Assembly (NCBI GenBank): GCA_030745835.1
Contig: JASLNU010000113.1
Coordinates: 1,361 to 65,360 of the forward strand
DNA from: Rhodospirillales bacterium
GTDB taxonomy: Bacteria; Pseudomonadota; Alphaproteobacteria; Rhodospirillales; UBA2165
DNA length: 64,000 nucleotides
Reading direction: 5' to 3'
The notes under the pieces were generated by a model. The model saw only the letters and a list, made by a program, of their open reading frames with translations, was not told where the DNA came from and made no database searches. The position numbers and the translations under genes were made by a program. Numbering within the stretch: position 1 is the first letter of the stretch; each line of letters opens with the position of its first letter. Shown piece after piece: positions 7,636 to 42,445 of the stretch.

Positions 7636-7645
7636 TATTGGCGCC

Positions 7646-24419: not shown

Positions 24420-24435
24420 TGTGATGACCGTCACA
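24420..24435. promoter_or_regulatory. perfect CRP/FNR-type palindrome TGTGATGACCGTCACA upstream of the giant adhesin gene
   Basis: TGTGA-N6-TCACA read directly, in the AT-rich intergenic region 115 nt before ATG 24550. A possible -10 (TAGATT, 24457-24462) would centre the site near -41.5 (class II geometry). A near-identical site lies at 41470-41485. Confidence 0.45.
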
Positions 24436-24549
24436 GCAGCATCCCGCCAAGAGGCTTAGATTGAAGCTATCGAATTATGCGCGCCACCCGCCGGCGGAGA
24501 ATCGGATTTTACGGCGGACGCGGGCGCGCCTTGGCGAGAGGGTGCCGAT

Positions 24550-27500
24550 ATGGCTGACGAAATTATCCGAGACGACGAAAACCTGACCTTGGCCGATGAT
24601 GACGGCGCGGGCGGACAAAGCATTACCGTAGAGGTTGGCGCCGATGGCGCCGTGATGCTGCCCGAGGGCGTTAACTTCGGCACCGCCGATTTCGCCCAAT
24701 CGGGATCGGACCTGATACTGACCGGTCCGGATGGCACCCAGGTCGTTGTCGAAGGTTATTTCGATTCTGAATCGGCGCCGATGCTCAGGACCCCGGGCGG
24801 CAGCGAATTGCCGGGCGAAACGGCAACCCATCTGGCGCGTGTCTTGTCGCCAAGCCAGGAAGTGGCGCAGGCGGCGCCCAGCGCCGATGCCCAGCCGATC
24901 GGCCAGGTCGAAAGCGTAACCGGCACCGTCGTCGCCATCCGCGCCAACGGCGAGCGCGTCGAGCTGCAAGCCGGCGATCCGGTGTTCCAAGGCGATGTGC
25001 TGCAATCGGGCGAAGAAGGCGCCATCGGTATCGTGTTGGCCGACGAAACCACCTTTTCCATGGCCGAAAACGGGCGCATGGTTTTGGACGAAATGGTCTA
25101 TGACCCGGGCACCCAGGAAGGCAGCATTTCGATGTCGGTGCTGCAGGGCGTGTTCACCTTCGTTTCCGGCCAGGTGGCCAAGGTCGATCCCGATGCCATG
25201 ACCCTGAAGACGCCGGTGGCGACCATTGGTATCCGCGGAACGCAAGTTGGTATCGATTTGCGCGATACCGGCACGGGCGAGCCGGACCTTAGAGTCGTGC
25301 TGATGGAAGAATCCGACGGTTTCGTCGGCGAAGTGGTAATTTCCAACGCCGGCGGCATCCAGATCCTCAATCTGCCCGATCAGGGCTCTTCCGTCAGCAG
25401 CGCCACTTCGGCGCCGGCCGAACCGCGCGTATTGCAACGCAGCGAAATCCGCGAATCCTACGGCGAAGCATTGGATTCCCTGCCGACAGCGGTCGGCACC
25501 GGCAACAATTACGGTTCCCGCGAAGACGAAGCCCAGGAACAGGAACAAGAAGAGGAACAACAGCAGGAAGAAGGAGAGGAAGCTGCCGACGAATTCGCCG
25601 AAACCGAAGGCGGTGGCGAAGGCGAAGGCGAAGACCTGGACGATTTCGAAACCGCCGCCGGCGGAGAGGAAGAAGAAGAAGAAGGCGAGGGCGAGGAAGA
25701 AGATGGCTTAGTCGACCTTGCCGCCGAAGAAGAGGCTGCCGCTGAAGCCGCCGCCGCCGAAGCCGCCGCCGAAGCTGCCGCCGCCGCGGCTGCGGCCGAG
25801 GAAGCCGCCGCCGCCGAAGCCGCGGCCGCGGCCGCCGATGCCGCCGCCGAGGCCGCCGCGCAGGCGGCCGCCGATGCCGCCGCCGCCGCCGCGCGCGCCG
25901 CCGCGCAGGCTGCCGCCGATGCCGCGCGCGCCGCCGCCGAGGCCGAAGCAGCGCGTATCCAAGCCGAAATCGATGCCGAAAACGCGGTTGCCGATCTGGC
26001 CACCGTGAAGATTGATGTGGCGCAGGGTGATGAAGATACCGCCATAGATCTGGCCATCAACGCCACCATGGGCGGTACATCGGACCGATTGGAAAGCGTT
26101 ACCGTCGATAATATCCCCGAGGGCGCGACCATCAGCCTTGATGGCGTTGAACTGCTATTGACCGATAATAATGACGGCACCTACAGCGTTACCTTGGAAC
26201 CCAGCCAGCTGACCGGCCTGACCGTCACCCCGGCGCTCGATGAAAATGCGGACTTCACGCTCGAGGTCAGAGCCACCTCCATCGATCCCGACTCCGGCGT
26301 CACCGCGACCACCAGGCCGAGCACCCTGGATGTCACCGTTGACGCCACGGTCGATCCGGCGGTGGTAACCGCGGTTCCCGGCGAAGGCTATGAAGACGCC
26401 CCCATCCAGTTGGATGTTTCCACCTTCCTTGCCGACGCCGACGGCACTGTTACCAGTATCGCCATCGACAACATCCCCGACGGTGCGACGCTGACCTATG
26501 TCGACGAAACCGGCGCCACCGTCGAGATCGTCATCACCGATGGCAGCGTGACACTATCTCCCGATCAGTTGAACGGCCTGATGATCACGCCGCCCTCCGA
26601 TGACGCCCATGATTTCAACCTGGACGTGACCGCCACGGCGACCGACATCGATCCCGATATGGTCGAGGAAGCCGCCGCCGCCGATGCCGCGGCCGCTGAA
26701 GCCGCAATCGCCGAAACGCAGGCGATCGCCGCCTCCGATGCCGCCGATTTGGCCGTGCCCGAAGCGCAAACCGCCGCCGACGAGGCCGCCGCCGCCCTCG
26801 CCGGTGCCGACGCCGATGCGACCGATGCCAATATCGCCGAGCTGCAAGCCGCTGTGGACGCCGCCGACACCGCACTCGCAGACGCCAAGAAAGCCGCTTC
26901 CGATGCCGAAACCGCCGAAGTCGACGCCATCGCCGCGTCCGATGCAGCCGATGACGTGGCCGCCGGCTACGAATTGACCGTCGCCGCCATCGAAGCCATG
27001 GCCGAAGCCGATGCCGCCGCCGAGGCCGTCGTCGATGCTAATACCGCTCTCGATGCCGCCGAAGCTGCCGCGACCGCCGCCGATCTTGCCGAAACCCAAG
27101 CCATCGCCGCCTCTGATGCCGCCGATCTAGCGGTGACCGAGGCGCAGACCGCCGTCGATGAAGCCAGCGCCGCCCTCGCCGATGCCAAACGCAATGAAGT
27201 CGACGAGTTAGAGGCCGCTCTGGCCGACGCCGAAGCCGTGCTCGCCGATGCCGAGGCTGCCGCTACTGCCGCCGAAACCGCCGAAGACGACGCCATCGCC
27301 GCCTCCGATGCCGCCGATGCGAACGTCACCGATGCCGAAACCGCGGTCACCACCGCCGAAGCCCATGCCGAATCTACCGCCGCCGCGGCTGACGATGCCG
27401 TCATTGCCGCTGCCGAGGGCGATGCCACCGGCCTGGTCACCAGCACCAGCGAAACCCAATCGCAAACCGTCGAGGTGATCGCTACCGTCGATGCGCCGGT

Positions 27501-30500
27501 TGTCACTGTGGATGATGCCTCCGGCTTGGAAGATACGGCGATCGATCTGGATTTGACCGCTACCGTCGATACCGCCGGTATCCCCGACGGCACGCTGGAC
27601 AGCGTCACCATCACCGATATTCCCGAAGGCGCGGTCATCAGCCTTGATGGCGTTGATCTGGCATTGACCGATAATGGCGACGGCACCTCCAGCGTCACCC
27701 TCGCGCCCGGCCAACTGACCGGCCTGACCATCACCCCGGCCCAGGACGACGCCCACGATTTCGCCGTCACCGTTACCGCCACGGCGGTCGATATCGATCC
27801 TGATTTTCAGATCGCCGTCGATAATGCCGAAGCCGCTGCCGCCGAAGCCGCAACCGCCCTTACCGCCGCCGAAGCCGCCGCCGGCGTTGCCGCGACCGCC
27901 GAAACCGACGCCATCGCCGCGTCCGATGCCGCCGATTTGGTGGTCACCGAAGCGCAGACCGTCGCCGACGATGCCGCCGCCGCCCTCGCCGATGCCGGCG
28001 AGGATGCGACACCTGCCGAGATCGCCGAGTTGCAAGCCGTCGTGGACGACGCCGAAGCCGCGCTCGCGGTCGCTACCGCCGACGCCGCCGAAGCCGAAAC
28101 CGCCGAAACCGACGCCATTGCCGCATCCGATGCTGCCGATCTGGCTGTCACCGAGGCGCAAACCGCTGTCACCGCCGCCGATACCGAGGTTGCGGACGCC
28201 ACCGCCGCACGCGATGCCGGCGGGATTTCCAACACCAGCGAACCCATATCCCTGGATGTCGAGGTCAACGCCACCGTCGATGCGCCGGAGGTGGTGGATA
28301 TCGCCGCCCGCGGCGACGAAGACGCGGCGATCCCGTTGGATATAAACTCGGCCATCAGCCTCGATACAGAGGGGATCATCGACGGCACCCTCGACAGTGT
28401 CAGCATCACCAATATTCCCGATGGCGCCACCATGAGCTATGTGGATGACGCCGGCGCGGCCCAGTCGATCACCATCACCGGCGGCGGCGCGACCCTGACG
28501 CCCGCCCAATTGGATGGCCTGACCATCACGCCGCCTTCGGACGACGCCGGTGACTTCAATCTGAGCTTCACCGCGACGGCAACCGATACGGATCCCGATA
28601 CCGGCGCCGTCGTCACCAATACCAGCGCCGCGCAGACCCTGGCGGTAACCGTCGATGTTACCGTCGATGCGCCGGGTGTCGTGGATACCGCTACCCGCGG
28701 CGACGAAGACGCGGCGATCCCGCTGGATATCAACACGGCGATCACCATGGATACGGAGGGTATCATCGACGGCACCCTCGACAGTGTTTCGATCACCGAT
28801 ATTCCGGATGGCGCCGTGTTGATGAGCGGCGGCGTGGCCATCACCCTGACCGGACCGGACGCGACGACCGGTCTTTTCAGCGCCGAGTTAACGCCCGATC
28901 AGTTGGCCGGCCTGACCATCACGCCGGCCTCGGACGACGCCGGTGACTTCAACCTGAGCTTCACCGCGACGGCGACCGACACCGATCCCGATTCGGGCGT
29001 CGTGGTCACCAATACCAGCGAAGCACATTCGCTGACGGTGACGGTGGATGCCACCGTCGATGCGCCGGAAGTCGTGGACACCGCCGCCCGCGGCGACGAA
29101 GACGCGGCGATCCCGCTCGATGTTGCCGGCGCCATCAGCCTTGATACCGAGGGCATCATTGATGGCACCCTCGACAGCGTTGCCATTACCGATATTCCAG
29201 ACGGCGCCGTGTTGATGAGCGATGGCGTGGCCATCACCTTGACTGGCCCAGATGCGACGACCGGTCTATTCAGCGCCGAGTTAACGCCCGATCAGTTGGC
29301 CGGCCTGACCATCACGCCGGCCCAGGACGACGCCAATGATTTCGACCTGAGCTTCACCGCCACGACCACCGACACCGACCCCGATTCGGGCGTCGTGGTC
29401 ACCAATACCAGCGAGGCACATTCGCTGACGGTGACGGTGGATGCCACCGTCGATGCGCCGACTGTGACCGACGCCGCCGCCGCCGGCGACGAAGACACCG
29501 CCATCCCGTTGGATGTTGCCTCGGCGATCAGCGTCGATGTGGCCGACGGTTCGCTCGACAGCGTCGATGTCACCAATATCCCGGCGGGCGCCAGCCTGAC
29601 CTATGTGGACGGCAGCGGCGCGACGCAGCAAATTGCCATTGTCGATGGCAGTGCGACCCTGACGCCCGATCAGCTAAGCAGCTTGGCGATCACGCCGCCG
29701 GCCGACGATGCCTCTGATTTCACCTTGAGCTTCACCGCCACGACCACCGACACCGATCCCGATACCGGCAACAGGGTCACCAACACCAGCACGGCGCAAT
29801 CGCTGGTGATTGCCGTGGCGGCGACCGCCGATGCGCCCGATGTTTCGGTTGACGACGCGGCGGGCTCCGCAAATACCCCCATCGCGCTGGATATCGCGGC
29901 GACGGTGGACGTCGGCGACGATATCCTCGAAAGCGTCACCATCGCTGATATCCCGCCTGGCGCCACCCTGACTTATGTGGACGCTACCGGCGCCACCCAG
30001 GAAATCACCATCGCCGGTGACAGTGCGATCCTGACGCCGGAGCAGTTGAACGGCTTGGCGGTGACGCCGGCCGCCGGCGATACGACGGATTTCAATCTCA
30101 GCGTTTCCGCGACGGCGTCGGATACCGATCCCGACACCGGTGAAACCGTAACCAGCACCAGCCAGCCGGTGACGCTGAACGTCGATATAACCAGCGGCAA
30201 TGTCGCGCCGGTGGCCACCGACGATACGGATGCGGTCGGCGACGATATCGGCGACACCGTAACGGGTAATGTTTTGAGCAACGACTTCGATCTTGACGGC
30301 GATGTATTGAACGTCACGCAGGTTGAATTCGAAGGCACCGTCCATCAATTCCCCGAAGGTGAGGATTCGCTCACCATCGAAGGCGACCTTGGTACGCTGG
30401 TCATCGGCTCCGATGGCACCTACACCTATACCAAGGGCGAGTTTGAGAATGATTGGGCCGAGGGAACGCCGACGTGGGTTCCTCCGCAGGAGCAGCAGGA

Positions 30501-33500: not shown

Positions 33501-36500
33501 CGCCAGCGATATCGACGGCGACAGCCTTGAATATTCATTGTCGGATCAAGGCGCACCCGAACATGGCACCGTCGCAATCAACGCCGACGGCAGTTATACC
33601 TACACCCCCGACGGTGATTACAGCGGCACCGACAGCTTTACCTTCACCGTCGATGACGGCGCCGGCGGCACCTCGAGCGCCACCGTGACCTTGTCGGTCA
33701 CCGGCGTTGCTGATGATCCGGTGGTGGTGGTCAGCGACGATACCGGCGTCGAGGACACCTGGACCCAGTTGCACCTGGATAGCTCGCTTTCCGATACCGA
33801 CGGCTCGGAAGCCCTGAGCGTATCGATTTCCAACGTTCCCGACGGCGCCACCTTAAGCCCGGGCACCAATCTGGGCGGCGGCGAATGGACGGTTTTGCCC
33901 GAACAGCTGCATCTGGTCTGCATCCTGCCGCCGGATGATTTCTCGGGCGAAATCGACATGACCTTGTCGGTGACCTCGACCGAAGCCGACGGCGATGTCG
34001 CCACCGTTTCCAGCGGCTTCACGGTTGACGTGACGCCCGCCGGCGATGTCAGTGTGTCGGCCGCCGATGTGACCGGGACCGAGGACAGCGTCATCGATCT
34101 GGGCCTTTCGGCGGATTCTTTCTCGATCACCGATGCCGATGGTTCGGAAACCCTGCAATCCATCGAAATCTCATTCTCCGGCCTGCCCGAGGGCGCGGTG
34201 GTCAACAACGCCACCTACAATCAGGCAACCGGCACCTATACGGTGGCGACAGTGGCGGCGCTGGCCATCGTCTCGGTAACGCCGCCCGATGATTGGAGCG
34301 GCCAGTTCGACGCCACTCTGAACGTCACCTCCAACGAAGGTTCCGCTGCGCAAACCTTCGGCGTCACCGTCAGCCCGGGCAACGATGCGCCGGTGATCTC
34401 CACCTCGCCGGTGTTCTCGATGAACGAGGACGGATCGATCGTCATTTCCGAGGCCCAGCTTCTCGCCGGTGCCTCCGACGCGGACGGCGATACGCTCAGT
34501 GTTACCGACCTGGTGGTCAATGGCGGGCAAGGGACATTGACCGGCCCCGATGCCGACGGCAATTACACCTATGCGCCGCCGGCCGATTTCAGCGGCGACG
34601 TATCGCTCGATTACAATGTATCCGACGGCACCGCGAGCGTTGCGCAAACGGCAAGCATTGCCGTGGCCGGCGTCGCCGATGCGCCTGAACTGACCGTTGA
34701 CATCGGAGAAGGTGAACTGGTCACGGTCGGTGGCGATCCGGTTGAAGTGTCCATTGATTTTGATAGTGTCACGGATACCGACGCCGGATTCACCGTGACT
34801 GCCCGTTCGATCGACGACCAGGGTCAGCTGACCGATGCAAGCGCCGACAATATTTCTTTCCACAATACGTCTCCTCAAGGTTTTGGCGTCAGCGGCAATG
34901 CCTCGGGCGCGAATTCAGAACTTGGCTACGACAGCGATGCCGGAATTTCCGAACAGTTGATCGTGTCGTTTGACAGCGACGTTTCGTCCGCCGACGTCTC
35001 GTTCGCTTGGAAGCACAGCGGTGAAGACGCCACGTTTGAATTCTACAAGGACGGTGTGAAAGTTGGTGAAGGCACCATAATCGGCGGCAGCGACGGAATA
35101 GACCCGGCGGTCACGATTTCGCCGGACGATGGCAGTTCATTTGATCAGATCGTGTTTATGGCGTCGGGTTCGGGCGATGATTACCTGATCAATTCGATCG
35201 ATTTTGAAGCCAATGCGAATGCTGATACCGTCATTGAGTATCCAGTCACCATTGCGGCCGATTTGGTGGACACGGACGGCTCTGAAACGCTGTCCACCAT
35301 CACCATCGATATGGAGGGTATGCCCGAAGGGGTGAGCTTCAGTGCAGGCGGCTTGAACGCAGACGGTAATTGGGAACTCACCCCGGCGCAGCTCGATGGC
35401 CTGACCATGACCGCACCGGAAGGCTCGGGTGATATTGATCTAACCGTTAGTGTAACCTCGACCGAAGCCAACGGTGATGCCGCGACGACGACAGTGACGG
35501 CGACCGCAGATGGGGCAAATGTCGGACCTGAAGTCAGTGGCACGCCCGAGTTGGCGATGAACGAGGACGGCACCTTGACAATCACCGCGGATCAGCTTCT
35601 GGCCGGCGCGACCGATGCCGATGGCGATACATTGAGCGTCGAGAATTTGGTGGTGAATGGCGGCACTGGGACTTTGACGGGTCCGGACGATGCCGGCAAC
35701 TATACCTATCTGCCGCCGGCCGATTTCAGCGGCGATGTCACCCTCGACTATGATGTCAGCGACGGCACCGCGAGCGTTGCGCAAACGGCTTCCATCGCCG
35801 TTGCCGGCGTTGCCGATACTCCGGAATTGACGGCCGGCGTTACCGGCGTCACCGAAGTCATGGCGGAAACCGCCGTGCCGGTGTCGCAGGTGCTTCTCGA
35901 TCAAGTGGAAGCCGACCATGTGGTCACCATCACCGGCGTTCCCGATGGCGCCACGCTCAATGCCGGCGTCGATAACGGCGATGGCAGCTGGACCCTGACC
36001 GGTGATCTGCTGGACGGCCTGAGCGTCACCGCGCCGGATGGCTATGCCGGTGATCTGAACCTGGATATTTCGGTTGTCGATAGCGGTGGCGGCGGCAGCC
36101 AAACGCTAATCGAAGCCGACTTCAACTCCGGCACCTCCGGGTTCACCTATTCCGATGATGCCTTCGGAACGGACAATCCAGCACATGCCCGAGGAAAGTG
36201 GGACGACAATGACGGTGAAGATGGCAGCGGCGCGCTTAAGATTAAACTGGGCGGCGCCGACGATGACGACGTTACCGACGGCATGTCCGGCGGTTTTGGA
36301 CAGAACTTCACGGTCACCGACGAGGGCGCCGGCACGCTAACCTTCAGCTACCGGCTGGATCAGGATTCCCGCTACGAGGACGACGAATATTCCGAAGTTC
36401 TGGTCAGTATCGATGGTGAATTGGTCAGCCTCGACGGCAATGATTACATCGCGCGCATCTCGGGCGGCGGCGATACCGGCTGGCAAACCGTGACCCTCGA

Positions 36501-37575
36501 TCTCGGCACCCTGCCGGAAGGCGAGCATACTCTGGTCATCGGTGGTTTTAACAACCAGTCGACAGAAAAAAAGGAAAAGACCGAGATTAATTTCGACGAT
36601 CTTGAATTGACCGTCGAGAGCGGTGAGACGTTTGTGGCCAGCGAAAGCCTCAGCTTCGCGCCCGATGTCGGTGGCCATCTCTATGCCATCGATATTGCGG
36701 CGGCGCTCGGCGATACGGACGGCTCGGAATCCCTTTCGGCCATCACCTTCGAAGGCTTGCCCGACGGCGTTACCCTCAACGCGGGATCGTCCGACGGCGA
36801 GGGCGGCTGGACCGTCGACGCGGGTGATCTTGCCGGATTGGAGGTCACGGTGCCCGACGGCAGCGGCGCGTTCCAGATGACCGTGAGCGCGACCTCGACC
36901 GATACCGGCGGCGATACAGCCAGCATCACCCGGACCATGGATTTCTCCGATCATCTCGGCGCCGACAGCGCGGACACCCTCGCCGGCGAGGCGGGCGATG
37001 TCGCCGATACGCTGTATGGCGGCGCCGGCGACGATGCGCTTTCGGGTGACGGCGGCGACGATACGCTTTACGGCGGATCCGGCGACGATGATGTCACCGG
37101 CGGCGATGGCGCCGACACCATCTATGGTGGCGACGGCATCGATACGCTCTACGGCGGATCGGGCGTCGATTACCTGTCCGGCGGCGATGGCAACGATGTC
37201 ATCTACGGCGAGTCGGGCAACGATATCATCCTCGGCGGCGCCGGCGACGATCAGCTCCATGGCGGCGAGGGCAATGACGAGTTCGTCTTCGACCTCGGCG
37301 ACGGCAACGACACCATCTTTGATTTCGAGGCTGGCGATGCGCTCAGCTTCGACGGGGTCAGCCTGGCCGAAGGCGATAACGTCGAAATCACCACCGATGG
37401 CAACGATGTGGTCATCCGCATCATCGGCCAGGACGGCGCCGAAACCAACAAGGTGACATTGAAGGATTCGGTTGACGAAACCGACCAAAACGCGGTCGAA
37501 AATATCGGCGATGGTTATTCGGTCACCGACACCGGCGATGGCGGCGTATCGATCGTCGTCGATCAAACCGGTTAG
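24550..37575 (+). CDS. giant (4341 aa) RTX-type T1SS-secreted adhesin with LapA-like retention region
   Basis: N-terminal region VESVTGTVVAIRANGERVELQAGDPVFQGDVLQSGEEGAIGIVLADETTFSMAENGRMVLDEMVYDP resembles LapA-type retention modules. Then an acidic tract with TAAG, Ala-rich tracts, ~131-aa repeats (DGTLDSV.IT.IPDGA...LTPDQL.GLTITP..DDA.DF.L), a DUF4114-like module (DEDYNDLMFSV), nine 93-aa tandem-95/cadherin-like repeats, and Gly/Asp nonapeptide RTX repeats (GGAGDDALSGDGGDDTLYGGSGDD...). The C-terminus is non-repetitive with no Cys. Confidence 0.9.
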   Translation: MADEIIRDDENLTLADDDGAGGQSITVEVGADGAVMLPEGVNFGTADFAQSGSDLILTGPDGTQVVVEGYFDSESAPMLRTPGGSELPGETATHLARVLSPSQEVAQAAPSADAQPIGQVESVTGTVVAIRANGERVELQAGDPVFQGDVLQSGEEGAIGIVLADETTFSMAENGRMVLDEMVYDPGTQEGSISMSVLQGVFTFVSGQVAKVDPDAMTLKTPVATIGIRGTQVGIDLRDTGTGEPDLRVVLMEESDGFVGEVVISNAGGIQILNLPDQGSSVSSATSAPAEPRVLQRSEIRESYGEALDSLPTAVGTGNNYGSREDEAQEQEQEEEQQQEEGEEAADEFAETEGGGEGEGEDLDDFETAAGGEEEEEEGEGEEEDGLVDLAAEEEAAAEAAAAEAAAEAAAAAAAAEEAAAAEAAAAAADAAAEAAAQAAADAAAAAARAAAQAAADAARAAAEAEAARIQAEIDAENAVADLATVKIDVAQGDEDTAIDLAINATMGGTSDRLESVTVDNIPEGATISLDGVELLLTDNNDGTYSVTLEPSQLTGLTVTPALDENADFTLEVRATSIDPDSGVTATTRPSTLDVTVDATVDPAVVTAVPGEGYEDAPIQLDVSTFLADADGTVTSIAIDNIPDGATLTYVDETGATVEIVITDGSVTLSPDQLNGLMITPPSDDAHDFNLDVTATATDIDPDMVEEAAAADAAAAEAAIAETQAIAASDAADLAVPEAQTAADEAAAALAGADADATDANIAELQAAVDAADTALADAKKAASDAETAEVDAIAASDAADDVAAGYELTVAAIEAMAEADAAAEAVVDANTALDAAEAAATAADLAETQAIAASDAADLAVTEAQTAVDEASAALADAKRNEVDELEAALADAEAVLADAEAAATAAETAEDDAIAASDAADANVTDAETAVTTAEAHAESTAAAADDAVIAAAEGDATGLVTSTSETQSQTVEVIATVDAPVVTVDDASGLEDTAIDLDLTATVDTAGIPDGTLDSVTITDIPEGAVISLDGVDLALTDNGDGTSSVTLAPGQLTGLTITPAQDDAHDFAVTVTATAVDIDPDFQIAVDNAEAAAAEAATALTAAEAAAGVAATAETDAIAASDAADLVVTEAQTVADDAAAALADAGEDATPAEIAELQAVVDDAEAALAVATADAAEAETAETDAIAASDAADLAVTEAQTAVTAADTEVADATAARDAGGISNTSEPISLDVEVNATVDAPEVVDIAARGDEDAAIPLDINSAISLDTEGIIDGTLDSVSITNIPDGATMSYVDDAGAAQSITITGGGATLTPAQLDGLTITPPSDDAGDFNLSFTATATDTDPDTGAVVTNTSAAQTLAVTVDVTVDAPGVVDTATRGDEDAAIPLDINTAITMDTEGIIDGTLDSVSITDIPDGAVLMSGGVAITLTGPDATTGLFSAELTPDQLAGLTITPASDDAGDFNLSFTATATDTDPDSGVVVTNTSEAHSLTVTVDATVDAPEVVDTAARGDEDAAIPLDVAGAISLDTEGIIDGTLDSVAITDIPDGAVLMSDGVAITLTGPDATTGLFSAELTPDQLAGLTITPAQDDANDFDLSFTATTTDTDPDSGVVVTNTSEAHSLTVTVDATVDAPTVTDAAAAGDEDTAIPLDVASAISVDVADGSLDSVDVTNIPAGASLTYVDGSGATQQIAIVDGSATLTPDQLSSLAITPPADDASDFTLSFTATTTDTDPDTGNRVTNTSTAQSLVIAVAATADAPDVSVDDAAGSANTPIALDIAATVDVGDDILESVTIADIPPGATLTYVDATGATQEITIAGDSAILTPEQLNGLAVTPAAGDTTDFNLSVSATASDTDPDTGETVTSTSQPVTLNVDITSGNVAPVATDDTDAVGDDIGDTVTGNVLSNDFDLDGDVLNVTQVEFEGTVHQFPEGEDSLTIEGDLGTLVIGSDGTYTYTKGEFENDWAEGTPTWVPPQEQQELDPVQVDQANLTVPDGADSVTVTFQGEEAGYHNIVGWYKIDADGNPFEPQIAWQDASQVGSGGDMVPGESQFTIDDLGPGESFGFFIIKDGADEYRWIDRVPDNHYFEFNEDGELIEYNESGEEVGQSEGEGQGHKIDVDDVFHAVDNNLTDSLLNTDNVAHTNSGIDPETGDLMIGFEDLYGGGDEDYNDLMFSVDYEGTGYGDQDVFSYTVTDGEFTDTANLTIEIDPDNDAPVAVDDSLIAHEDDALVITADQLLANDTDADLDTLTITDVGEATHGTATLNDDGSITFTPDDDYEGPAQFTYTVSDGAGGTDTAVVHLTVTGNDDYPVAVADVATLDEDSSVIIDALANDIAVDGGPILDSFTQPEHGTVTVNEDGTFTYTPEANYNDGDSFTYTITDTDGDTSTAIVSVAVNPVDDPVVAVEDTAVLNEDASAVIDVLANDTAVDGGLELTGVTQPLHGTVAINEDGTVTYTPATDYNGSDSFTYSVTDADGSVATATVSLTIDPTNDAPVAVDDTATLNEDASAVINVLANDSDLDGDTLSLDSVTQPDHGTVAINADGTVTYTPDANYNGADSFTYSISDGAGGTATASVSLTVNPENDLPVAVDDVATLNEDASAVINVLANDSDLDGDTLSLDSVTQPDHGTVAINADGSVTYPPEADYTGSDSFTYSISDGAGGTSTASVSLTVNPENDAPVAVDDTAILNEDASAVIDVLANDSDLDGDTLSLDSVTQPDHGTVSINPDGTVTYTPEANYNGADSFTYSISDGAGGTSTANVSLTVNPENDDPVAVGDTAILNEDASAVINVLANDSDLDGDTLSLDSVTQPEHGTVAINADGSVTYTPEADYTGSDSFTYSISDGAGGTSTASVSLTVNPENDAPVAVDDTAILNEDASAVIDVLANDSDLDGIALSVDSVTQPDHGTVAINADGTVTYTPEANYNGADSFTYTVSDGAGGLSTASVSLTVNPENDVPVAVDATAVLDEDTAFAGQLSASDIDGDSLEYSLSDQGAPEHGTVAINADGSYTYTPDGDYSGTDSFTFTVDDGAGGTSSATVTLSVTGVADDPVVVVSDDTGVEDTWTQLHLDSSLSDTDGSEALSVSISNVPDGATLSPGTNLGGGEWTVLPEQLHLVCILPPDDFSGEIDMTLSVTSTEADGDVATVSSGFTVDVTPAGDVSVSAADVTGTEDSVIDLGLSADSFSITDADGSETLQSIEISFSGLPEGAVVNNATYNQATGTYTVATVAALAIVSVTPPDDWSGQFDATLNVTSNEGSAAQTFGVTVSPGNDAPVISTSPVFSMNEDGSIVISEAQLLAGASDADGDTLSVTDLVVNGGQGTLTGPDADGNYTYAPPADFSGDVSLDYNVSDGTASVAQTASIAVAGVADAPELTVDIGEGELVTVGGDPVEVSIDFDSVTDTDAGFTVTARSIDDQGQLTDASADNISFHNTSPQGFGVSGNASGANSELGYDSDAGISEQLIVSFDSDVSSADVSFAWKHSGEDATFEFYKDGVKVGEGTIIGGSDGIDPAVTISPDDGSSFDQIVFMASGSGDDYLINSIDFEANANADTVIEYPVTIAADLVDTDGSETLSTITIDMEGMPEGVSFSAGGLNADGNWELTPAQLDGLTMTAPEGSGDIDLTVSVTSTEANGDAATTTVTATADGANVGPEVSGTPELAMNEDGTLTITADQLLAGATDADGDTLSVENLVVNGGTGTLTGPDDAGNYTYLPPADFSGDVTLDYDVSDGTASVAQTASIAVAGVADTPELTAGVTGVTEVMAETAVPVSQVLLDQVEADHVVTITGVPDGATLNAGVDNGDGSWTLTGDLLDGLSVTAPDGYAGDLNLDISVVDSGGGGSQTLIEADFNSGTSGFTYSDDAFGTDNPAHARGKWDDNDGEDGSGALKIKLGGADDDDVTDGMSGGFGQNFTVTDEGAGTLTFSYRLDQDSRYEDDEYSEVLVSIDGELVSLDGNDYIARISGGGDTGWQTVTLDLGTLPEGEHTLVIGGFNNQSTEKKEKTEINFDDLELTVESGETFVASESLSFAPDVGGHLYAIDIAAALGDTDGSESLSAITFEGLPDGVTLNAGSSDGEGGWTVDAGDLAGLEVTVPDGSGAFQMTVSATSTDTGGDTASITRTMDFSDHLGADSADTLAGEAGDVADTLYGGAGDDALSGDGGDDTLYGGSGDDDVTGGDGADTIYGGDGIDTLYGGSGVDYLSGGDGNDVIYGESGNDIILGGAGDDQLHGGEGNDEFVFDLGDGNDTIFDFEAGDALSFDGVSLAEGDNVEITTDGNDVVIRIIGQDGAETNKVTLKDSVDETDQNAVENIGDGYSVTDTGDGGVSIVVDQTG
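25651..25662 (+). other. candidate LapG/BTLCP cleavage motif T-A-A-G (aa 368-371) in the adhesin
   Basis: ACC GCC GCC GGC in frame, context EDLDDFETAAGGEEEEEE. LapG substrates are cleaved at a (T/P/A)-A-A-(G/V) di-alanine motif downstream of the retention module. Confidence 0.5.
28230..29470 (+). repeat. near-identical ~393-bp (131-aa) in-frame tandem repeats within the adhesin gene
   Basis: The landmark AATACCAGCG recurs at 28618, 29011 and 29404 (393-bp spacing) with long identical flanks (…TNTSEAHSLTVTVDATVDAPEVVDTAARGDEDAAIPLD…). Confidence 0.8.
31192..33705 (+). repeat. nine in-frame 279-bp (93-aa) tandem-95/cadherin-like repeats; copies 4-8 (about 32030-33425) nearly identical
   Basis: Repeat unit NDAPVAVDDTA.LNEDASAVI.VLANDSDLDGDTLSLDSVTQPDHGTVAINADG.VTYTPEA.Y.G.DSFTYSISDGAGGTSTASVSLTVNPE. 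Antisense ORF artefacts recur every 279 bp (31968, 32247, 32526, 32805, 33084). Confidence 0.9.
36958..37300 (+). repeat. RTX calcium-binding nonapeptide repeat block (GGxGxDxUx) of the adhesin
   Basis: LYGGAGDDALSGDGGDDTLYGGSGDDDVTGGDGADTIYGGDGIDTLYGGSGVDYLSGGDGNDVIYGESGNDIILGGAGDDQLHGGEGND. Confidence 0.9.
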
Positions 37576-37622
37576 ACGCAGCCCGCGTCGGGTTGGCAGG
37601 GTCGGCCACGCGGGCGTCGGAC
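37575..37622. repeat. REP-like palindromic element, copy 1 (copy 2 at 60437-60494)
   Basis: GACGCAGCCCGCGTCGGGTTGGCAGGGTCGGCCACGCGGGCGTCGGAC versus GACGCAGCCCGTGTGGGGTTGGCTGGGCCGGCCACACGGGCGTG(AGGTACGCT)CGGAC. Each contains an internal inverted repeat (CCCGYGT.GG / CCACRCGGG). Confidence 0.5.
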
Positions 37623-37641
37623 TAGGCACCTGTTTACGATA

Positions 37642-37670
37642 GGGCCGCCCCCACCGGGCGGCTCTTTTTA
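37642..37670 (+). terminator. rho-independent terminator after the adhesin gene
   Basis: GCCGCCC-CCACC-GGGCGGC stem-loop followed by CTTTTTA. Overlaps the stop codon of the convergent TPR/ATP-grasp gene. Confidence 0.6.
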
Positions 37671-39167
37671 TGCCGACCCCGCCCTGCCGCCGTCCGATGC
37701 ATGGGAAACCGGTTTTTCATCCGCCGCCGGCAATGCGCGGGACAGGATCATGTTCTGGAAGGCATCCGTGATGCGCCTGGCATGGGGTTCCAGATAGGGA
37801 AAATTCCGGGCGTGCTCGAAACTGTGGCGCATGGCCGGATTGGTTTCGAAGATCAGTATTCGCCCATCCTCCATGACATCGAAATCAACGCCGAAGAAAT
37901 CGAGCCCGGAAATCTTGGGTAGCGCATTCAGGGCCGCGAAAGCATCGGCGCCCACATAGGCCGCCGGATCGTCCAAGTAAGCTTCCTCGAGGTCCGTCAT
38001 CCACGGGGTTTCGGCCATCACCGTGGTGCGGTTGAAACCGTGAACGTTCCAAACCGTATCGACGTGATGGACCACCGGATAAAGTTCGCCGTCGATAAAA
38101 AAGACTCGCATCTTGCGGAAATAATCCTCGCGGAACGGAGACAGCACATATTCGATCACGTAATGGGTGCCTGCACCCTCGGTAAGGAAATAGTCTTCGA
38201 CCACGGGCAGGCTGTCGGCCTTGACCGTGGAAACCGCCGTATGGGTTCCGGTCCGGCGCAAGATGACCGGCAACTCCAATCCTTCCCGGCTGAGGAATTC
38301 GGCCGCATCAAACGGAACATCCGGGCGCACTTCGGCACGCATGGACTTGGGGAAGCGGATACCCGGAACCTCTTTCAGGCGCCTATAATTGTTGTCGCGT
38401 GTGGATTCGAGAACCCGCGCCGGGTCATTGATCACCGGCATACCGGGATTGCGCGCCAAATATCGTGCCGCCGTTTCCAGGGATTGGCCCTCCAGATCCG
38501 CGTCGGCGACGCTGTTGACCACGATATCGTGGGCGGGGATACCCTCATGGCTGAGGATGTTTTCGTCCGAGATCAGAAAATTTATGGTGGTGAATTGGTT
38601 CTGATCCCAAAGCGCGCTCGAAGAAAAATTGCCGCCGGAAAGGCGCAGCCAATGGCTGCCCTCGGGAGCCACCTTATAAAATGCGTTCTGCACCCCGCGC
38701 AGGCGCAGGATGCGGGCCTTGGGCGCTCCCAGACAGGATTGAACCGAGATCGGGCGTTTGCAAAGGCCGATCTTCAGGGTTTGCCTGGACACCTCTATCT
38801 CGCCCAATTCCCGCTGGATCGCCGACAGCGACAGATAGGCGCGGGCTTCGCCGGGAAATTTTTCAATGATGGTTGCGTAAACGGTTGCCGCCCGTTTCAT
38901 GTCGCCGGCGCGCACCAGAAGATCGCCCAACTGCATCAAAAGCGGCAGACTATCGGGACGATATTGAAGCGCCTGCCAAAAGCAATAGGCGGCGTCGTCC
39001 AGCCGGTTAAGCCCGATAAGGGCCAGCCCCAATCCGCGCCAGGCATCGGCGTCCTCGGGATTTGCCTTCAGATGCGCGCGGTAGGCGGTTTCCGCTTCCT
39101 TGTTCTGGCCGGCGCGCCTCAGGCGCTGAGCCTCGGCCGCGCCGCCAACGGAACGCCGCGCCATCAT
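37668..39167 (-). CDS. TPR-repeat protein with C-terminal ATP-grasp-like domain
   Basis: N-terminal ~135 aa are TPR-like (AETAYRAHLKANPEDADAWRGLGLALIGLNRLDDAAYCFWQALQYRPD...). The C-terminus has the ATP-grasp Mg/ATP motif pattern (DFFGVDFDVMEDGRILIFETNPAM, cf. E-x-N). Starts 3 nt after the stop of the upstream sensor gene. Confidence 0.6.
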   Translation of the reverse strand: MMARRSVGGAAEAQRLRRAGQNKEAETAYRAHLKANPEDADAWRGLGLALIGLNRLDDAAYCFWQALQYRPDSLPLLMQLGDLLVRAGDMKRAATVYATIIEKFPGEARAYLSLSAIQRELGEIEVSRQTLKIGLCKRPISVQSCLGAPKARILRLRGVQNAFYKVAPEGSHWLRLSGGNFSSSALWDQNQFTTINFLISDENILSHEGIPAHDIVVNSVADADLEGQSLETAARYLARNPGMPVINDPARVLESTRDNNYRRLKEVPGIRFPKSMRAEVRPDVPFDAAEFLSREGLELPVILRRTGTHTAVSTVKADSLPVVEDYFLTEGAGTHYVIEYVLSPFREDYFRKMRVFFIDGELYPVVHHVDTVWNVHGFNRTTVMAETPWMTDLEEAYLDDPAAYVGADAFAALNALPKISGLDFFGVDFDVMEDGRILIFETNPAMRHSFEHARNFPYLEPHARRITDAFQNMILSRALPAADEKPVSHASDGGRAGSA

Positions 39168-39170
39168 TTC

Positions 39171-41366
39171 TTATCCCCGATGCAGGAAGTGCGCCCATTT
39201 AAGGGCGCCGCCATGATTTTCCACATGGTTTAGCAACGCCGAAACCACGCGCCGGTCGTAGATGGTCCCCGAATCGGCCAAAAGCCGCGCCGTCGCCTGT
39301 TCCAGCGACAGGCCCGGACCGCCGCCCCGGGGGCTGGTTAGATCGACGAAAGCGTTGGCAACGGCGACGATGCGCGCCGTCAGGACAATGCTTTCGCCGC
39401 TTAAGGCTTCGGCGCCGGTGCCGTCGTAATGTTCCGATGACTGGCGGATGGTATCGACCACCGGTCCCTCGAAATCGATGCCGCCGAGAAGTTGGGCGCT
39501 GGTAATATGAGCCTCGGTCAATTGGCGCCGGTCGCCGATTGCCAAATCGTTCAGGCTGCGGCCCATCAATTCGGGCGAAACAAGCACGGTGCCGAGGCTC
39601 CTGAGGCTGCCGGCAAAGCCGGCGGTATCGACCTCGCGGCGCTCACATTCCAATTCCTCGGCGATCGACCGCGCCACGTCGCCGACATCGCTGGAACGGG
39701 TATCCGAGGTCGGATCGCGCCGGTCGACGACGCTGGCCAGGGTGGTCACCAACTGTTTCAGCCGGTTCTCGCTTTTAAGCTGCTCGCGCGAAAATTCGGT
39801 GATGTCGTCGACGATCATCAGGACGCCGGGCGGATGGTCGCGGTCGCCGCGTAGCGGGATATGGTCCGATTTCAGGACTTCCATCTCGCCGCTTTCGTCC
39901 TCGAACCGCTGGATGAAGGATTTACGCACCTTCTGCACCGAATCCTCGACGCCTTCCTCTTCCATATCGGCGAAATCCTTCAGGATATCCTTGTTGACAT
40001 CGGCGTAATATTTGGCCTTCACCGGCCCCATGATGCTGGCCATGGTCTTGCCCATCATGTCTTCGGGCTGAATGCCCGCAGCCTTGGCCGCCGGTTCATT
40101 GGAAAAAGTGTAGGTGGTGGTGCCGTCGACGGCGACGATATGGGTCGGCTGGGAGTTGGTGATGACGCGCATGAATTTCGAAATATTCTCGAACCGTTCG
40201 GACGAAATGCGGAATTTTTCGGCCGCCGCCGCGGCGCGTAAACTCGTGCCGTGGCGCCAGACTGCGATCATGCCGACGGTGACACCGACGATTATCAGCA
40301 CGAAGACAATTAAGATGGTGCGCAGCCTGGTATCGTTTGCAGACAGCGCCTCGGCACGCGAGATTTTACGCACCAGCACCCAGGGCACATCGGCCAGCGC
40401 CCGCGACGTGACCAGAACCTCTTCGCCCGCATAATCGCGTTTAATGGCGAACCCGCCCGGTTTTTCAATGGCGAAAGCGGCGGCAAGATCGGCGGTATCG
40501 AACGCCATCGCCCGTTTCAGCGGCGCCGTCCGGTCGGCCAGGGGCGACAGGTATTCGACCGAATTAGCCTTCTTGCGCACCAAATAGGTTTCCGATGTTT
40601 TCGACGTATCGCCGGGCTGTTTCAATAGATCGAACAGTTCCGCATCGACAATGCGGATGCCGATGGCGACGCCGATCCCTTTCGAGCCGCTGTCCGATTG
40701 GACGCCGTAGATGGGAAGCGAGAAGCCGATGGTCGGCTCGTTGGTCGCGCCCTTATACATATCGATGACCGCCGGTTCGCCATCCAGCGAGGAGGCGATG
40801 GCCTTGCGCATGTTGCCGCCCAGGGCGGGCATTTCCGGCGTCGACACCAAGGGCTTGCCGTCGGCGTCGGTCAGCGCCAAGCCGGCGACGCCGGCGCGCT
40901 CCACGTTGGCATTGGTTTCCTGTTGCGGCGCCAGCGGGACGAAACCGTTGCGGTCGGCCATGGCGACCAAAAGGTTGCTCAAATAGCCTTGCTGCGCGGT
41001 GCCGTCGGTGACCTGGGATGTATCGCCCTTGGCGTCGGAAAGTTCGGTCAGGTAAAGTTGCAGCGATGCGTTTTCCGTCAGTTCCGCGATGACATCGAAA
41101 TTGGTATCGACCCACTCGTTAATTTCGGCGACGCGGCTATCGGCGACGATGCCGAGGCGGATTTGCCATTCATTAAGGGCGCGCTGGCGCTCGCCTTCGA
41201 CAAATTGGAACGAAAAGAAGACGCCGGCGCCGATGACCGCCAGGAGAACGATAATGGCGATGGCCACCGTCCGGTTGACCTTGCCTTTCGGCGTTTCCCC
41301 CTCGGCCTCCTTGTCCAGGTCGGCCTGTTTGTCTTTCGGGGCCTCGTCCGCCGCTGCGTCTGCCAT
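39171..41366 (-). CDS. two-TM sensor protein: ~300-aa periplasmic (Cache-like) domain, PAS-like region, degenerate HD-GYP domain
   Basis: TM1 VAIAIIVLLAVIGAGVFFSF and TM2 ILIVFVLIIVGVTVGMIAVW flank ~300 aa. The C-terminal ~190 aa align to the HD-GYP pattern, but RDPTSDTRSS replaces RD.YT.GHS, LRSLGT replaces LHDIGK, and SSEHYDGTGAE replaces HHER.DG.GYP. All metal/catalytic His/Asp and the GYP are lost. Confidence 0.7.
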   Translation of the reverse strand: MADAAADEAPKDKQADLDKEAEGETPKGKVNRTVAIAIIVLLAVIGAGVFFSFQFVEGERQRALNEWQIRLGIVADSRVAEINEWVDTNFDVIAELTENASLQLYLTELSDAKGDTSQVTDGTAQQGYLSNLLVAMADRNGFVPLAPQQETNANVERAGVAGLALTDADGKPLVSTPEMPALGGNMRKAIASSLDGEPAVIDMYKGATNEPTIGFSLPIYGVQSDSGSKGIGVAIGIRIVDAELFDLLKQPGDTSKTSETYLVRKKANSVEYLSPLADRTAPLKRAMAFDTADLAAAFAIEKPGGFAIKRDYAGEEVLVTSRALADVPWVLVRKISRAEALSANDTRLRTILIVFVLIIVGVTVGMIAVWRHGTSLRAAAAAEKFRISSERFENISKFMRVITNSQPTHIVAVDGTTTYTFSNEPAAKAAGIQPEDMMGKTMASIMGPVKAKYYADVNKDILKDFADMEEEGVEDSVQKVRKSFIQRFEDESGEMEVLKSDHIPLRGDRDHPPGVLMIVDDITEFSREQLKSENRLKQLVTTLASVVDRRDPTSDTRSSDVGDVARSIAEELECERREVDTAGFAGSLRSLGTVLVSPELMGRSLNDLAIGDRRQLTEAHITSAQLLGGIDFEGPVVDTIRQSSEHYDGTGAEALSGESIVLTARIVAVANAFVDLTSPRGGGPGLSLEQATARLLADSGTIYDRRVVSALLNHVENHGGALKWAHFLHRG

Positions 41367-41469
41367 GGGCGCTCTCTTTCGGGGAATCTAAAGGTGTATG
41401 CGTACCGGCGTACTCTAAATTAACGATTAAAGCTTTCAAAGTAGATTTGGACTTGATGGAATACTACAT

Positions 41470-41485
41470 TGTGTTCCCGGTCACA
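41470..41485. promoter_or_regulatory. CRP/FNR-type palindrome TGTGTTCCCGGTCACA in the sensor/protease divergent intergenic region
   Basis: One mismatch from TGTGA-N6-TCACA. Shares the right arm CGGTCACA/CCGTCACA with the site at 24420-24435. Lies 55 nt upstream of ATG 41540. Confidence 0.4.
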
Positions 41486-41539
41486 GACAATTTATTGGAA
41501 AATTCGGCACAATGACCGAACTTGCATTAATATAGCCCC

Positions 41540-42349
41540 ATGACATGCATGATTAAATTGGTACCGCATAAGACTTTGATGATGGCAGCCGCGATGGCTG
41601 TTCTGATGCTCGACCCGCAACCTTCTAAAGCGGGTGTGCTCTCCCTCGATCCGGGAAAATTAGAGCAGGCGCAGCCGGCGGGGATATTCGAGTTGGCTTC
41701 CGCGCGCAAGCGTACGCGCGGTTCACGCCGGCGCGGCCGTTCATCGCGCCGGGCGAAGACCAGGACCGCCCGTTCCACCACACCTAAGAAAAGCGCGGCC
41801 GGCAACAGCCTGTTGTTCGGCACCCATGAGACCCAATCGAGCAATTTCAAGCCGTTCAAGAAATGGTCCGGGGCCGTGCAAAAAATGGCCAAGGAACAGG
41901 CCGATCTCGGCAAATTCAAGAAACGCTTCAAGAAATGGATCGTGTTTCTGGACGGTCTCAAGGGCAAGGACCGGCTAACCCAGATCAAGGCGGTCAACAA
42001 GTTCATGAACCGGTCCAAATATATCCAGGACAACAAGAATTGGGGGATCAAGGATTATTGGGCCTCGCCGGGCGAATTCCTGTCCAAGTTCGGCGATTGC
42101 GAGGACTATTCCATTGCCAAATACATGGCGCTCAAATATCTGGGCCACGATGCCGGCAAAATGCGCATCGTCGCGGTCAAGGACCTCAACCTCAAGATCG
42201 GGCATGCGATCCTTGCCGTTTATTACAAGAACCGGATTGTGATCCTCGACAACCAGATCAAGATCGTCGCCGATTCGCGCAAGATCCGCCATTACCAGCC
42301 GGTCTATTCGATCAACGAAGTTCACTGGTGGCGGCACCGCGCCACCTGA
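41540..42349 (+). CDS. periplasmic transglutaminase-like cysteine protease (BTLCP / Peptidase C93, LapG-like)
   Basis: Signal peptide (MMAAAMAVLMLDPQPSKA). Family core IKAVNKFMNRSKYIQDNKNWGIKDYWASPGEFLSKFGDCEDYSIAKYMALKYLG...GHAILAVYY...ILDNQ with the Cys-His-Asp triad intact. Unusual Arg/Lys-rich tract (ARKRTRGSRRRGRSSRRAKTRTARSTTPKKS) after the signal peptide. Confidence 0.8.
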   Translation: MTCMIKLVPHKTLMMAAAMAVLMLDPQPSKAGVLSLDPGKLEQAQPAGIFELASARKRTRGSRRRGRSSRRAKTRTARSTTPKKSAAGNSLLFGTHETQSSNFKPFKKWSGAVQKMAKEQADLGKFKKRFKKWIVFLDGLKGKDRLTQIKAVNKFMNRSKYIQDNKNWGIKDYWASPGEFLSKFGDCEDYSIAKYMALKYLGHDAGKMRIVAVKDLNLKIGHAILAVYYKNRIVILDNQIKIVADSRKIRHYQPVYSINEVHWWRHRAT

Positions 42350-42445
42350 GCCGGCCCAACCGATCCGAAAATTTCTTTTCCTGACCGTTTCAGCAGCGTA
42401 TCAAGGCGCGTTTGAATTCAACCTGATTCAAAACGGGAGGCGCGC

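Follow-up and report, generated by a model that had tools for sequence, protein, structure and literature searches.

A probable adhesin-release module of the DvhDG type in an uncultured marine member of the Rhodospirillales

Introduction

Which receptor would control a LapG-like protease at a locus where no LapD-type protein is encoded? The question is raised by a stretch of 64,000 nucleotides (nt) from a Rhodospirillales bacterium (assembly GCA_030745835.1, contig JASLNU010000113.1; the whole stretch is called the window here), in which four genes are grouped together at 24550-42349: those for a giant RTX adhesin, a TPR protein, a receptor of 731 amino acids (aa) and a BTLCP cysteine protease. 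An initial annotation of the window had placed the receptor, a two-helix membrane protein that is encoded divergently from the protease and ends in a dead HD-GYP domain, in the slot that LapD fills elsewhere. We consider it highly probable that this uncultured marine bacterium carries a variant of the Lap circuit for adhesin release, and that the variant is of the DvhDG type.

The DvhD-DvhG-DvhA/DVU1545 system belongs to Desulfovibrio (Nitratidesulfovibrio) vulgaris Hildenborough (PMC10990149; PMC13090378). Karbelkar et al. reported in 2024 that DvhD binds cyclic di-GMP (c-di-GMP) with a Kd of 322 nM and controls the LapG-like DvhG in a reconstituted system (PMC10990149); across the two available studies the Kd values are 322 nM and 99 nM (PMC10990149, PMC13090378). 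In 2026 Font et al. presented crystal structures of DvhD, in which the periplasmic domain is a dCache domain and the HD and HH motifs read SQ and MN; the protein is catalytically inactive in vitro and also accepts 3'3'-cyclic GMP-AMP (3'3'-cGAMP) (PMC13090378). Its canonical c-di-GMP site comprises Y523, L577, K582, Y621, M646, R650, Y652 and E668, while a second, dimer-bridging site comprises K520, P567 and R569, and binding of the nucleotide splays the stalk helices (PMC13090378). The substitutions R650A, P567T and Y652A/R653A each abolish stabilisation of DvhD by c-di-GMP, and the periplasmic helix alpha1' is the modelled interface with DvhG (PMC13090378). The same study lists 78 DvhD homologues with their neighbourhoods in its Supplementary Data 1 (PMC13090378).

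Results

Features of the receptor, protease and adhesin

The features on which the argument depends are as follows.

39171-41366, minus strand: probable DvhD-type receptor, 731 aa, with a first transmembrane helix, periplasmic dCache domain, second transmembrane helix (TM2), PAS domain, stalk and catalytically dead HD-GYP domain
40332-41201, minus strand: periplasmic dCache domain of the receptor, residues 56-345 (AlphaFold2 model and Foldseek)
39783-40175, minus strand: cytoplasmic PAS domain of the receptor, residues 398-528 (PAS_4, PAS and TIGR00229; aligns with the PAS domain of 9rc0)
39222-39740, minus strand: degenerate HD-GYP domain of the receptor, residues 543-715 (HD to RS, HH to SS, GYP to GAE)
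41540-42349, plus strand: BTLCP, LapG/DvhG-like, probably periplasmic cysteine protease, 269 aa (Peptidase_C93, PF06035, E=3e-15)
24550-37575, plus strand: giant RTX adhesin of the type I secretion system (T1SS) type, 4341 aa (open reading frame, Pfam and NCBIfam)
24892-25419, plus strand: predicted periplasmic retention (plug) domain of the adhesin, residues ~115-290 (AlphaFold2 model, Foldseek and phmmer)
25645-25665, plus strand: predicted cleavage motif FETAAGG of the adhesin, residues 366-372 (match to the [T/A/P]AAG consensus)
36955-37500, plus strand: C-terminal RTX nonapeptide repeats and putative T1SS secretion region of the adhesin (HemolysinCabind, five stretches, E=2.5e-19)

Kinship of the receptor to DvhD

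Two hydrophobic spans (~33-56 and 349-370) divide the receptor, and its Pfam and NCBIfam profile matches amount to HD_5 (residues 543-707, E=4e-22), PAS (PAS_4 at 405-526) and a weak dCache_1; neither database found LapD_MoxY_N, HAMP, GGDEF or EAL on the protein. On many of its homologues the dCache family PF02743 is precomputed. A phmmer search of the whole PDB matched the receptor to 9rc0 (PAS and HD-GYP, E=1.3e-25) and 9rbz (2.1e-19), with the next HD-GYP structure at 6.5e-6. These PDB entries are identified as DvhD by residue numbering: when the 9rbz chain is shifted by a single offset of 490, all 11 residues that PMC13090378 names for DvhD fall into place. The dCache domain leads to the same protein by its fold: the AlphaFold2 model (mean predicted local distance difference test, pLDDT, 86.9) has as its top Foldseek match 9rc2, entitled 'DvhD, periplasmic domain' (E=4.8e-12, TM-score 0.78), and the next dCache domain follows at 4.5e-8, four orders of magnitude behind. 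The large Cache-like periplasmic domain and the dead HD-GYP domain of the initial annotation were thus both recovered, the latter with all three motif strings that it had quoted (RDPTSDTRSS at 550-559, LRSLGT at 588-593 and SSEHYDGTGAE at 643-653). DvhD as the best match of all three domains, the recovery of its 11 named residues in the matched structure and the gene linkage described below (69 of 72 loci) likewise uphold its proposal that this protein occupies the LapD slot.

The dCache model contains a broken helix alpha1/alpha1' (residues 98-111, ENASLQLYLTEL), a feature of DvhD according to PMC13090378, and by analogy alpha1' is a predicted protease-docking surface. Conservation of its 12-residue stretch averages 0.90, the third highest value in the receptor; the most conserved stretches are a loop of the PAS domain (HIPLRGDRDHPP), alpha1 (WQIRLGIVADSR), alpha1' itself and a juxtamembrane segment. 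The PAS loop (residues 502-513, 39828-39863 on the minus strand) heads this list with a mean of 0.95, and all 62 sequences compared share H502, P504, R506, G507, D508, R509, D510, P512 and P513, whereas the sequence of DvhD differs at this point (…SESEHPRGV…). Rich in Arg and Asp and lying beside the stalk, the loop could serve as a dimer contact or as an alternative ligand site. At the other end of the cytoplasmic part, the C-terminal tail ENHGGALKWAHFLHRG (residues 716-731, 39171-39221 on the minus strand) has a core, N713, N717, G720 and W724, that is conserved family-wide, and this 16-residue tail shows zero non-synonymous changes in four of the pairs of closest relatives.

Judged by sequence, the window lineage is a distant member of the DvhD family, and its receptor would probably have failed the filter of E<=1e-50 used in the 2026 paper. 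The family is large: when public data were searched exhaustively by phmmer, the dCache domain by itself matched 219 clusters (50% identity) with E<=1e-30, nearly all of them proteins of ~700 aa.

Protease

The gene at 41540-42349 bears out the BTLCP/LapG-like protease of the initial annotation, including its Cys-His-Asp triad. The LapG crystal structures 4fgo and 4u65 match it at 1.3e-19, and in the alignment the motifs GDCEDY (calcium-binding Asp and Glu, catalytic Cys), AHAIL (His) and ILDN (Asp) are all in place. Against the NCBIfam LapG equivalog the protein scores 99 bits (E=1.7e-28) where the cut-off is 320, and it is thus a relative and not an orthologue or equivalog of gammaproteobacterial LapG. 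Gene callers give it a length of 266 or 251 aa. An N-terminal hydrophobic segment, with the stretch LMMAAAMAVLML...SKA|G that by eye resembles a signal peptide, is followed by an Arg/Lys-rich linker of ~60 aa and by the catalytic domain (113-265). The unusually basic low-complexity sequence of this linker, RKRTRGSRRRGRSSRRAKTRTARSTTPKKS, occupies residues ~51-97 (41690-41830, plus strand). Conservation of the linker is poor at greater evolutionary distance, the tblastn matches in such loci beginning at about residue 72-93. It is conceivable that the basic linker is attracted electrostatically to the strongly acidic linker that surrounds the cleavage site of the substrate.

Adhesin

The 4341-aa RTX adhesin with a TAAG motif was found as initially annotated. 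Pfam recognises 12-13 Cadherin_5/Big_9/Cadherin_4 repeats (E down to 6e-238), CshA_repeat, DUF4114, HemolysinCabind and an FecR-like domain at residues 150-240, and NCBIfam adds tandem-95 repeats, a BapA/LapF-type model of large-adhesin C-termini and an RTX_toxin match at residues 4136-4317. Alanine-rich helical stretches are also present, and beneath the protein repeats lie tandem repeats in the DNA (393 nt x3.2, 279 nt x6.7 and 81 nt x2.9).

A LapA-like retention region had previously been asserted, and it is borne out by both sequence and fold. The AlphaFold2 model of residues 1-400 (pLDDT 86.5) superimposes on 5ix9, the founding structure of retention domains, described as a 'cell surface anchoring domain', with a TM-score of 0.78, an rmsd (root-mean-square deviation) of 0.9 A and 27% identity; phmmer matches residues 115-196 to the same structure (E=5.5e-5), and the FecR/PupR-type domains 4m0n and 6ovk_R follow in Foldseek at E ~2e-5. 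We regard the retention-domain fold as confirmed, with an MpIBP-type anchor subdomain inside a beta-rich FecR-like domain. The profile searches on the three proteins agree in part with the initial annotation: Peptidase_C93, HD_5 and PAS were matched and dCache_1 weakly so, whereas the NCBIfam retention-module model had no match on the adhesin.

The candidate cleavage motif lies beyond this domain. TAAG occupies residues 368-371, within ...DLDDFETAAGGEEE, in an acidic disordered linker 141 residues past the conserved GIRGT anchor of the retention domain, and the scissile bond is predicted to fall between A369 and A370. FETAAG fits the [T/A/P]AAG site, preceded by hydrophobic residues, that is cleaved by LapG and DvhG. 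Among 86 aligned homologues of the adhesin N-terminus the majority consensus is L..F.TAAG, and TAAG follows the GIRGT anchor in 26 of the 38 homologues long enough to judge (median distance 128 aa), where chance would give ~0.04 per 300 residues as estimated from amino-acid frequencies.

Some relatives differ in how the substrate is built. The adhesin homologues P0127, P0162, P0177, P0141, P0149, P0161 and P0180 carry 2-4 tandem copies of ...L..FETAAG..., 30-70 acidic residues apart, which suggests multiple alternative cleavage sites. In loci L035, L039, L051, L054 and L057 the distance from the retention region to the RTX C-terminus is ~1-3 kb (~450-1300 aa); set against the 4341 aa found here, such short substrates indicate that the module serves substrates of widely differing size. 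An apparent length polymorphism was discarded: the TARA scaffold L088 has an identical receptor gene and an adhesin open reading frame of 1452 aa versus 4341 aa, but this frame equals the C-terminal 1452 residues at 100% identity and is thus explained by an assembly break in the repeats.

Ligand site of the degenerate HD-GYP domain

In the following, R550, T553, S597, E599, L608, R613, L676, R680, G682, G683 and D698 carry the numbering of the window's receptor, and all other positions that of DvhD. In the wider family the c-di-GMP site is well kept: of 111 representatives, 105 have R650, 105 an aromatic residue at 652, 107 R653, 98 P567, 102 L577 and 89 M646. The R-x-aromatic-R loop as a whole is retained in about 94% of them, and R650, the aromatic 652, R653 and P567 span 88-96%. 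A loop that is near-universal in the family backs the mechanism published for DvhD, and conservation of the ligand site across the wider family points to nucleotide sensing as the ancestral function. The window's subclade, defined as 26 clusters at >=60% identity, departs from this pattern. Instead of the PR-x-Y-R loop it shows PRGGG or PRDGS, with Gly at position 652 in 19 of the 26 and Ser or Gly at position 653 in 20; an aromatic residue at 523 occurs in no member, and in six the 577-582 loop is deleted. None of 119 close homologues aligned has the Tyr of GYP (DvhD Y621), which is deleted in the window's receptor.

In that receptor, T553 stands for Y523, S597 for P567 and G682/G683 for Y652/R653, and E599 is a further lost position; of the three DvhD mutants that c-di-GMP no longer stabilises, two thus have natural counterparts in this receptor. 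With these replacements the input signal may differ, and on the strength of the sequence comparison we lean towards the view that c-di-GMP is not read here in the manner of DvhD, binding being either weakened or lost. The HD-GYP domain is also the least conserved domain of the receptor and falls off most steeply between the window and the rest of the family, to an identity of 0.40 compared with 0.62-0.63 for the PAS and dCache domains. It is nevertheless under purifying selection and not decaying: in five pairs of close relatives the ratio of non-synonymous to synonymous substitution rates is 0.14-0.22 for HD-GYP, 0.11-0.14 for dCache and 0.05-0.10 for TM2 plus PAS, and in a sixth close pair it is ~0.03-0.04 in all three regions. 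The nucleotide sensing that the initial annotation assigned to the degenerate HD-GYP domain is in keeping with the conserved site of the family and is doubtful for the protein in the window, where Y652/R653 have become G682/G683 and P567 has become S597.

The foremost alternative accepts the same DvhDG-type module and lets the receptor sense c-di-GMP or 3'3'-cGAMP essentially as DvhD does, with G682/G683, S597 and T553 tolerated or compensated. We rate it as a serious contender, if somewhat short of even. Several observations speak for it and hence against a changed input. In the canonical site L608, R613, L676, R680 and D698 are kept or conservatively replaced, and R550 of the bridging site is conserved; Thr553 could possibly hydrogen-bond the ribose, giving weaker or re-shaped c-di-GMP binding; and purifying selection is equally expected from a ligand site that still functions. 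Conservation of the site in the wider family and the acceptance of 3'3'-cGAMP by DvhD fit this alternative too. Set against it are the effects of Y652A/R653A and P567T in DvhD at the very positions where the window has Gly-Gly and Ser, the loss within one subclade of positions that are highly conserved in the family, up to deletion of 577-582 in six members, and the low conservation of the domain relative to PAS and dCache.

Returning to the view that the input has changed, we read the sequences as retaining protease gating and transmembrane coupling. A stronger version is that the marine Rhodospirillales subclade is 'twice-degenerate', its HD-GYP domain having neither catalysis nor the c-di-GMP-binding residues, with adhesin release uncoupled from c-di-GMP although the protease gene, the adhesin with its cleavage motif and purifying selection across the whole receptor are kept; we put this forward tentatively, as a proposition whose chances come close to even without reaching it. 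If it is true, release would be driven by a cue sensed through dCache or PAS or by a different nucleotide, and the locus would show that nature has connected a Lap/Dvh-type switch to a different input.

Gene linkage in the window and in related genomes

No GGDEF or EAL domain and no T1SS gene (ABC exporter, HlyD or TolC-type) was found in the 64-kb window by Pfam, which covered essentially all open reading frames of >=180 aa, together with a six-frame motif scan. This agrees with the initial annotation, which had noted no GGDEF/EAL open reading frame at the locus. Two scans of one-genome-per-species contigs then yielded 84 related loci with receptor relatives at 44-86% identity, whose hosts are nearly all labelled as metagenome-assembled genomes (MAGs) of Alphaproteobacteria (Rhodospirillales, Thalassospiraceae, Magnetovibrio and others). 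Directly upstream of the receptor gene, and divergent from it, lies the BTLCP gene in 16 of 16 loci of the first set and subsequently in 69 of the 72 with enough flanking sequence, so that the pairing of receptor and protease seen in the initial annotation extends to related genomes. The divergent gap measures 130-830 nt across these 69 loci and 173 bp in the window. Downstream of the receptor, an RTX C-terminus is encoded in 42 of 53 loci, and none of the 84 has a GGDEF gene within 10 kb.

These data bear on a second alternative, in which the 731-aa protein is an unrelated neighbouring sensor and the protease is either under a canonical LapD encoded elsewhere or unregulated. The absence of lapD and T1SS genes covers the 64-kb window only, and an adjacent BTLCP gene is lacking in 3 of 72 loci, both of which would suit it. 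We consider it highly improbable all the same: the two genes remain divergent neighbours in 69 of 72 species-level loci, at receptor identities as low as 44%, and GGDEF genes are absent within 10 kb from all 84 loci; the receptor is homologous to a protein, DvhD, that experimentally controls its cognate protease; and alpha1 and alpha1' are among its most conserved parts.

Two of the related genomes deserve separate mention. Only in locus L063 does a T1SS pair of ABC exporter and HlyD occur near the module, so secretion genes appear to be usually unlinked in this clade. There, at 2223-9004, a 681-aa ABC exporter and an HlyD-family protein are followed by a 1111-aa SAM/class III nucleotidyl cyclase/AAA_16 ATPase gene, which lies directly upstream of the BTLCP gene. 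Loci L034 and L062 come from one MAG (JADHSV01) and form two receptor-protease pairs, each with its own BTLCP gene; Pelagibius marinus likewise has two in the published list (PMC13090378), and multiple DvhDG-type modules per genome thus do occur.

Novelty and catalytic activity

A third alternative, that the locus stands for a hitherto undescribed class of Lap-type systems with an HD-GYP pseudoenzyme in place of LapD, follows the initial annotation, which knew of no described system of this kind. The architecture is real and is not that of LapD, as the profile searches of the receptor attest, but the claim of novelty is refuted by PMC10990149 (2024) and PMC13090378 (2026), in which DvhD is already published. 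The best matches of the receptor are DvhD itself, and alphaproteobacterial homologues from Pelagibius, Denitrobaculum, Kiloniella, Fodinicurvata, Oceanibacterium and Sneathiella already stand in Supplementary Data 1 (PMC13090378). A new class is accordingly very improbable: the DvhDG-type system has been described, and the window locus is an uncharacterised, rather divergent copy of it and no new category. That the C-terminal domain is an active HD-GYP phosphodiesterase lowering local c-di-GMP is scarcely credible. It does match Pfam HD_5 and, below its cut-off, the NCBIfam NosR-family phosphodiesterase model, but it reads RS, SS and GAE at HD, HH and GYP, an intact HD or HH motif occurs in none of 111 full-length family representatives, and DvhD, with fewer substitutions, is inactive in vitro.

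Neighbouring genes

Two further features belong to the locus.

37668-39167, minus strand: TPR protein of 499 aa (TPR Pfam hits) whose C-terminal domain is ATP-grasp-like, of a divergent RimK type
41367-41539, no strand: AT-rich spacer of 173 bp that separates the divergent genes for receptor and protease and is presumed to hold their promoters

The TPR gene begins 3 nt downstream of the receptor's stop codon and is thus probably co-transcribed with the receptor gene. Its C-terminal 362 aa gave no Pfam match at E<=10 and no meaningful PDB match, and the RimK ATP-grasp family PF08443 on a few homologues is the only hint to the nature of this domain. The gene also lies downstream of the receptor in L001-L006 and L017 (44-71% identity) and in L020, L021, L028 and L030 (~40-43%). 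Homologues of this cytoplasmic 499-aa protein occur elsewhere too, for example in Kordiimonas.

The other long open reading frames of the window are, by Pfam, housekeeping and metabolic genes only, and an Rfam scan of the window that included c-di-GMP riboswitches found no family at the gathering threshold. The receptor protein is 100% identical to the NCBI MAG protein QF393_15955 (Rhodospirillales bacterium, GCA_030743895.1, contig JASLRO010000149.1), and the window is also matched by a JGI marine metagenome contig. The adhesin gene is directly preceded by that of a Sel1-repeat protein (23230-24198, minus strand; seven repeats, E=7e-59); Sel1-repeat genes near the module also occur in L008, L015 and L063, which may be coincidence or may mark an accessory factor. 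On the far side, 43588-46209 (plus strand) holds an M24/creatinase-like peptidase gene and then a truncated gene resembling pyruvate-phosphate dikinase (PPDK; PPDK_N and mobile domain only, 429 aa). L001, L002 and L006 have this pair next to the module as well, and the window encodes a full-length PPDK at 377-3058 (plus strand). An open reading frame of 263 aa at 42428-43219 (minus strand), which in tblastn seemed conserved beside the protease gene, is almost certainly a spurious antisense artefact, since 42446-43450 (plus strand) encodes a GFO/IDH/MocA oxidoreductase and the gene callers concur.

Discussion

Our assignment of the locus is built on observations made directly on it and on its relatives, namely the part-by-part homology, the intact protease residues, the retention fold, the conserved motif, the gene linkage, the loss of ligand residues and the purifying selection. 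For the retention of the adhesin, the calcium-dependent cut between two alanines, the restraint of the protease and inside-out signalling we draw, by analogy, on the DvhDG and LapDG literature. On that basis we propose that the 4341-aa adhesin is exported by a T1SS encoded outside the window and that its N-terminal beta-rich retention domain (~115-290) would plug the outer-membrane channel from the periplasmic side, thereby holding the adhesin on the surface. Cleavage of FETA|AGG by the BTLCP protease would free the adhesin and let the cell detach. Whether the protease gains access to its substrate would be decided by the receptor, whose dCache domain, probably via alpha1', may hold or occlude the protease, with the state of the cytoplasmic dimer of PAS and pseudo-HD-GYP domains being relayed outward through the membrane. 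The input could arrive through PAS and/or dCache or as a different ligand, and the HD-GYP fold might be kept as a dimeric transducer.

Several points weigh against this assignment. Identity to DvhD is low, at 27% for the cytoplasmic part and 16% for the dCache domain. T1SS genes lie within 10 kb in only one of the 84 related loci (L063) and none lies in the window, which makes the secretion route an assumption. A canonical LapD elsewhere in the genome would be compatible with the data, the scope of the search being the 64-kb window. Finally, we infer cleavage, docking and the direction of signalling at this locus by analogy.

If the assignment is right, the DvhDG variant of the Lap circuit extends well beyond sulfate reducers, to abundant uncultured marine Alphaproteobacteria. 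Within the family the window lineage would be a rare natural exception, and it could help to separate the parts of the receptor that gate the protease from those that sense nucleotides.

The locus can be compared with three known systems. With LapD-LapG-LapA of Pseudomonas fluorescens and its gammaproteobacterial, Bordetella and Legionella orthologues it shares the plan of a T1SS-type adhesin with an N-terminal plug that a BTLCP protease would release at [T/A/P]AAG. The protease is homologous to LapG, and, here by homology, an inner-membrane receptor with degenerate c-di-GMP-turnover domains would gate it as LapD does. The receptor, however, is not homologous to LapD and is without LapD_MoxY_N, HAMP, GGDEF and EAL, and lapEBC-type T1SS genes are not adjacent in the window. 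The second comparison concerns the adhesin N-terminus, of which residues 115-196 resemble the anchor of the Marinomonas primoryensis ice-binding adhesin (5ix9) in sequence and fold; unlike in 5ix9, the anchor subdomain forms part of a more extensive beta domain of the FecR/PupR kind (4m0n, 6ovk_R) and is preceded by a further beta domain of ~80 aa (residues 20-100).

The closest relative is the Dvh system itself, from which the locus nonetheless differs in several respects. Its host is an alphaproteobacterium and not a member of the Desulfovibrionales. T1SS genes are unlinked here but present in most published Dvh neighbourhoods. A TPR/ATP-grasp-like gene follows 3 nt downstream of the receptor gene. 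The subclade of the window has lost Y523, P567, Y652 and R653, and the Tyr of GYP is missing. DvhG has a transmembrane helix and a linker of ~180 aa, while the N-terminus of the protease here resembles a signal peptide and is followed by a basic linker of ~60 aa, an arrangement that loosely resembles the anchor and disordered linker of DvhG. For DvhA/DVU1545 short spacings have been described; the retention region of the window's adhesin is larger, and its motif lies 141 aa past GIRGT in an acidic linker. The two systems have the following in common: a receptor that joins two transmembrane helices, a dCache domain in which helix alpha1/alpha1' is broken, a PAS domain and a stalk to an HD-GYP domain whose metal site is dead, each of the three domains being matched best by DvhD structures (9rc2, 9rc0 and 9rbz); a neighbouring gene for a BTLCP protease with the C-H-D triad and a D-C-E calcium site; and a large T1SS-type adhesin as the probable substrate, with an N-terminal retention domain followed by TAAG preceded by hydrophobic residues.

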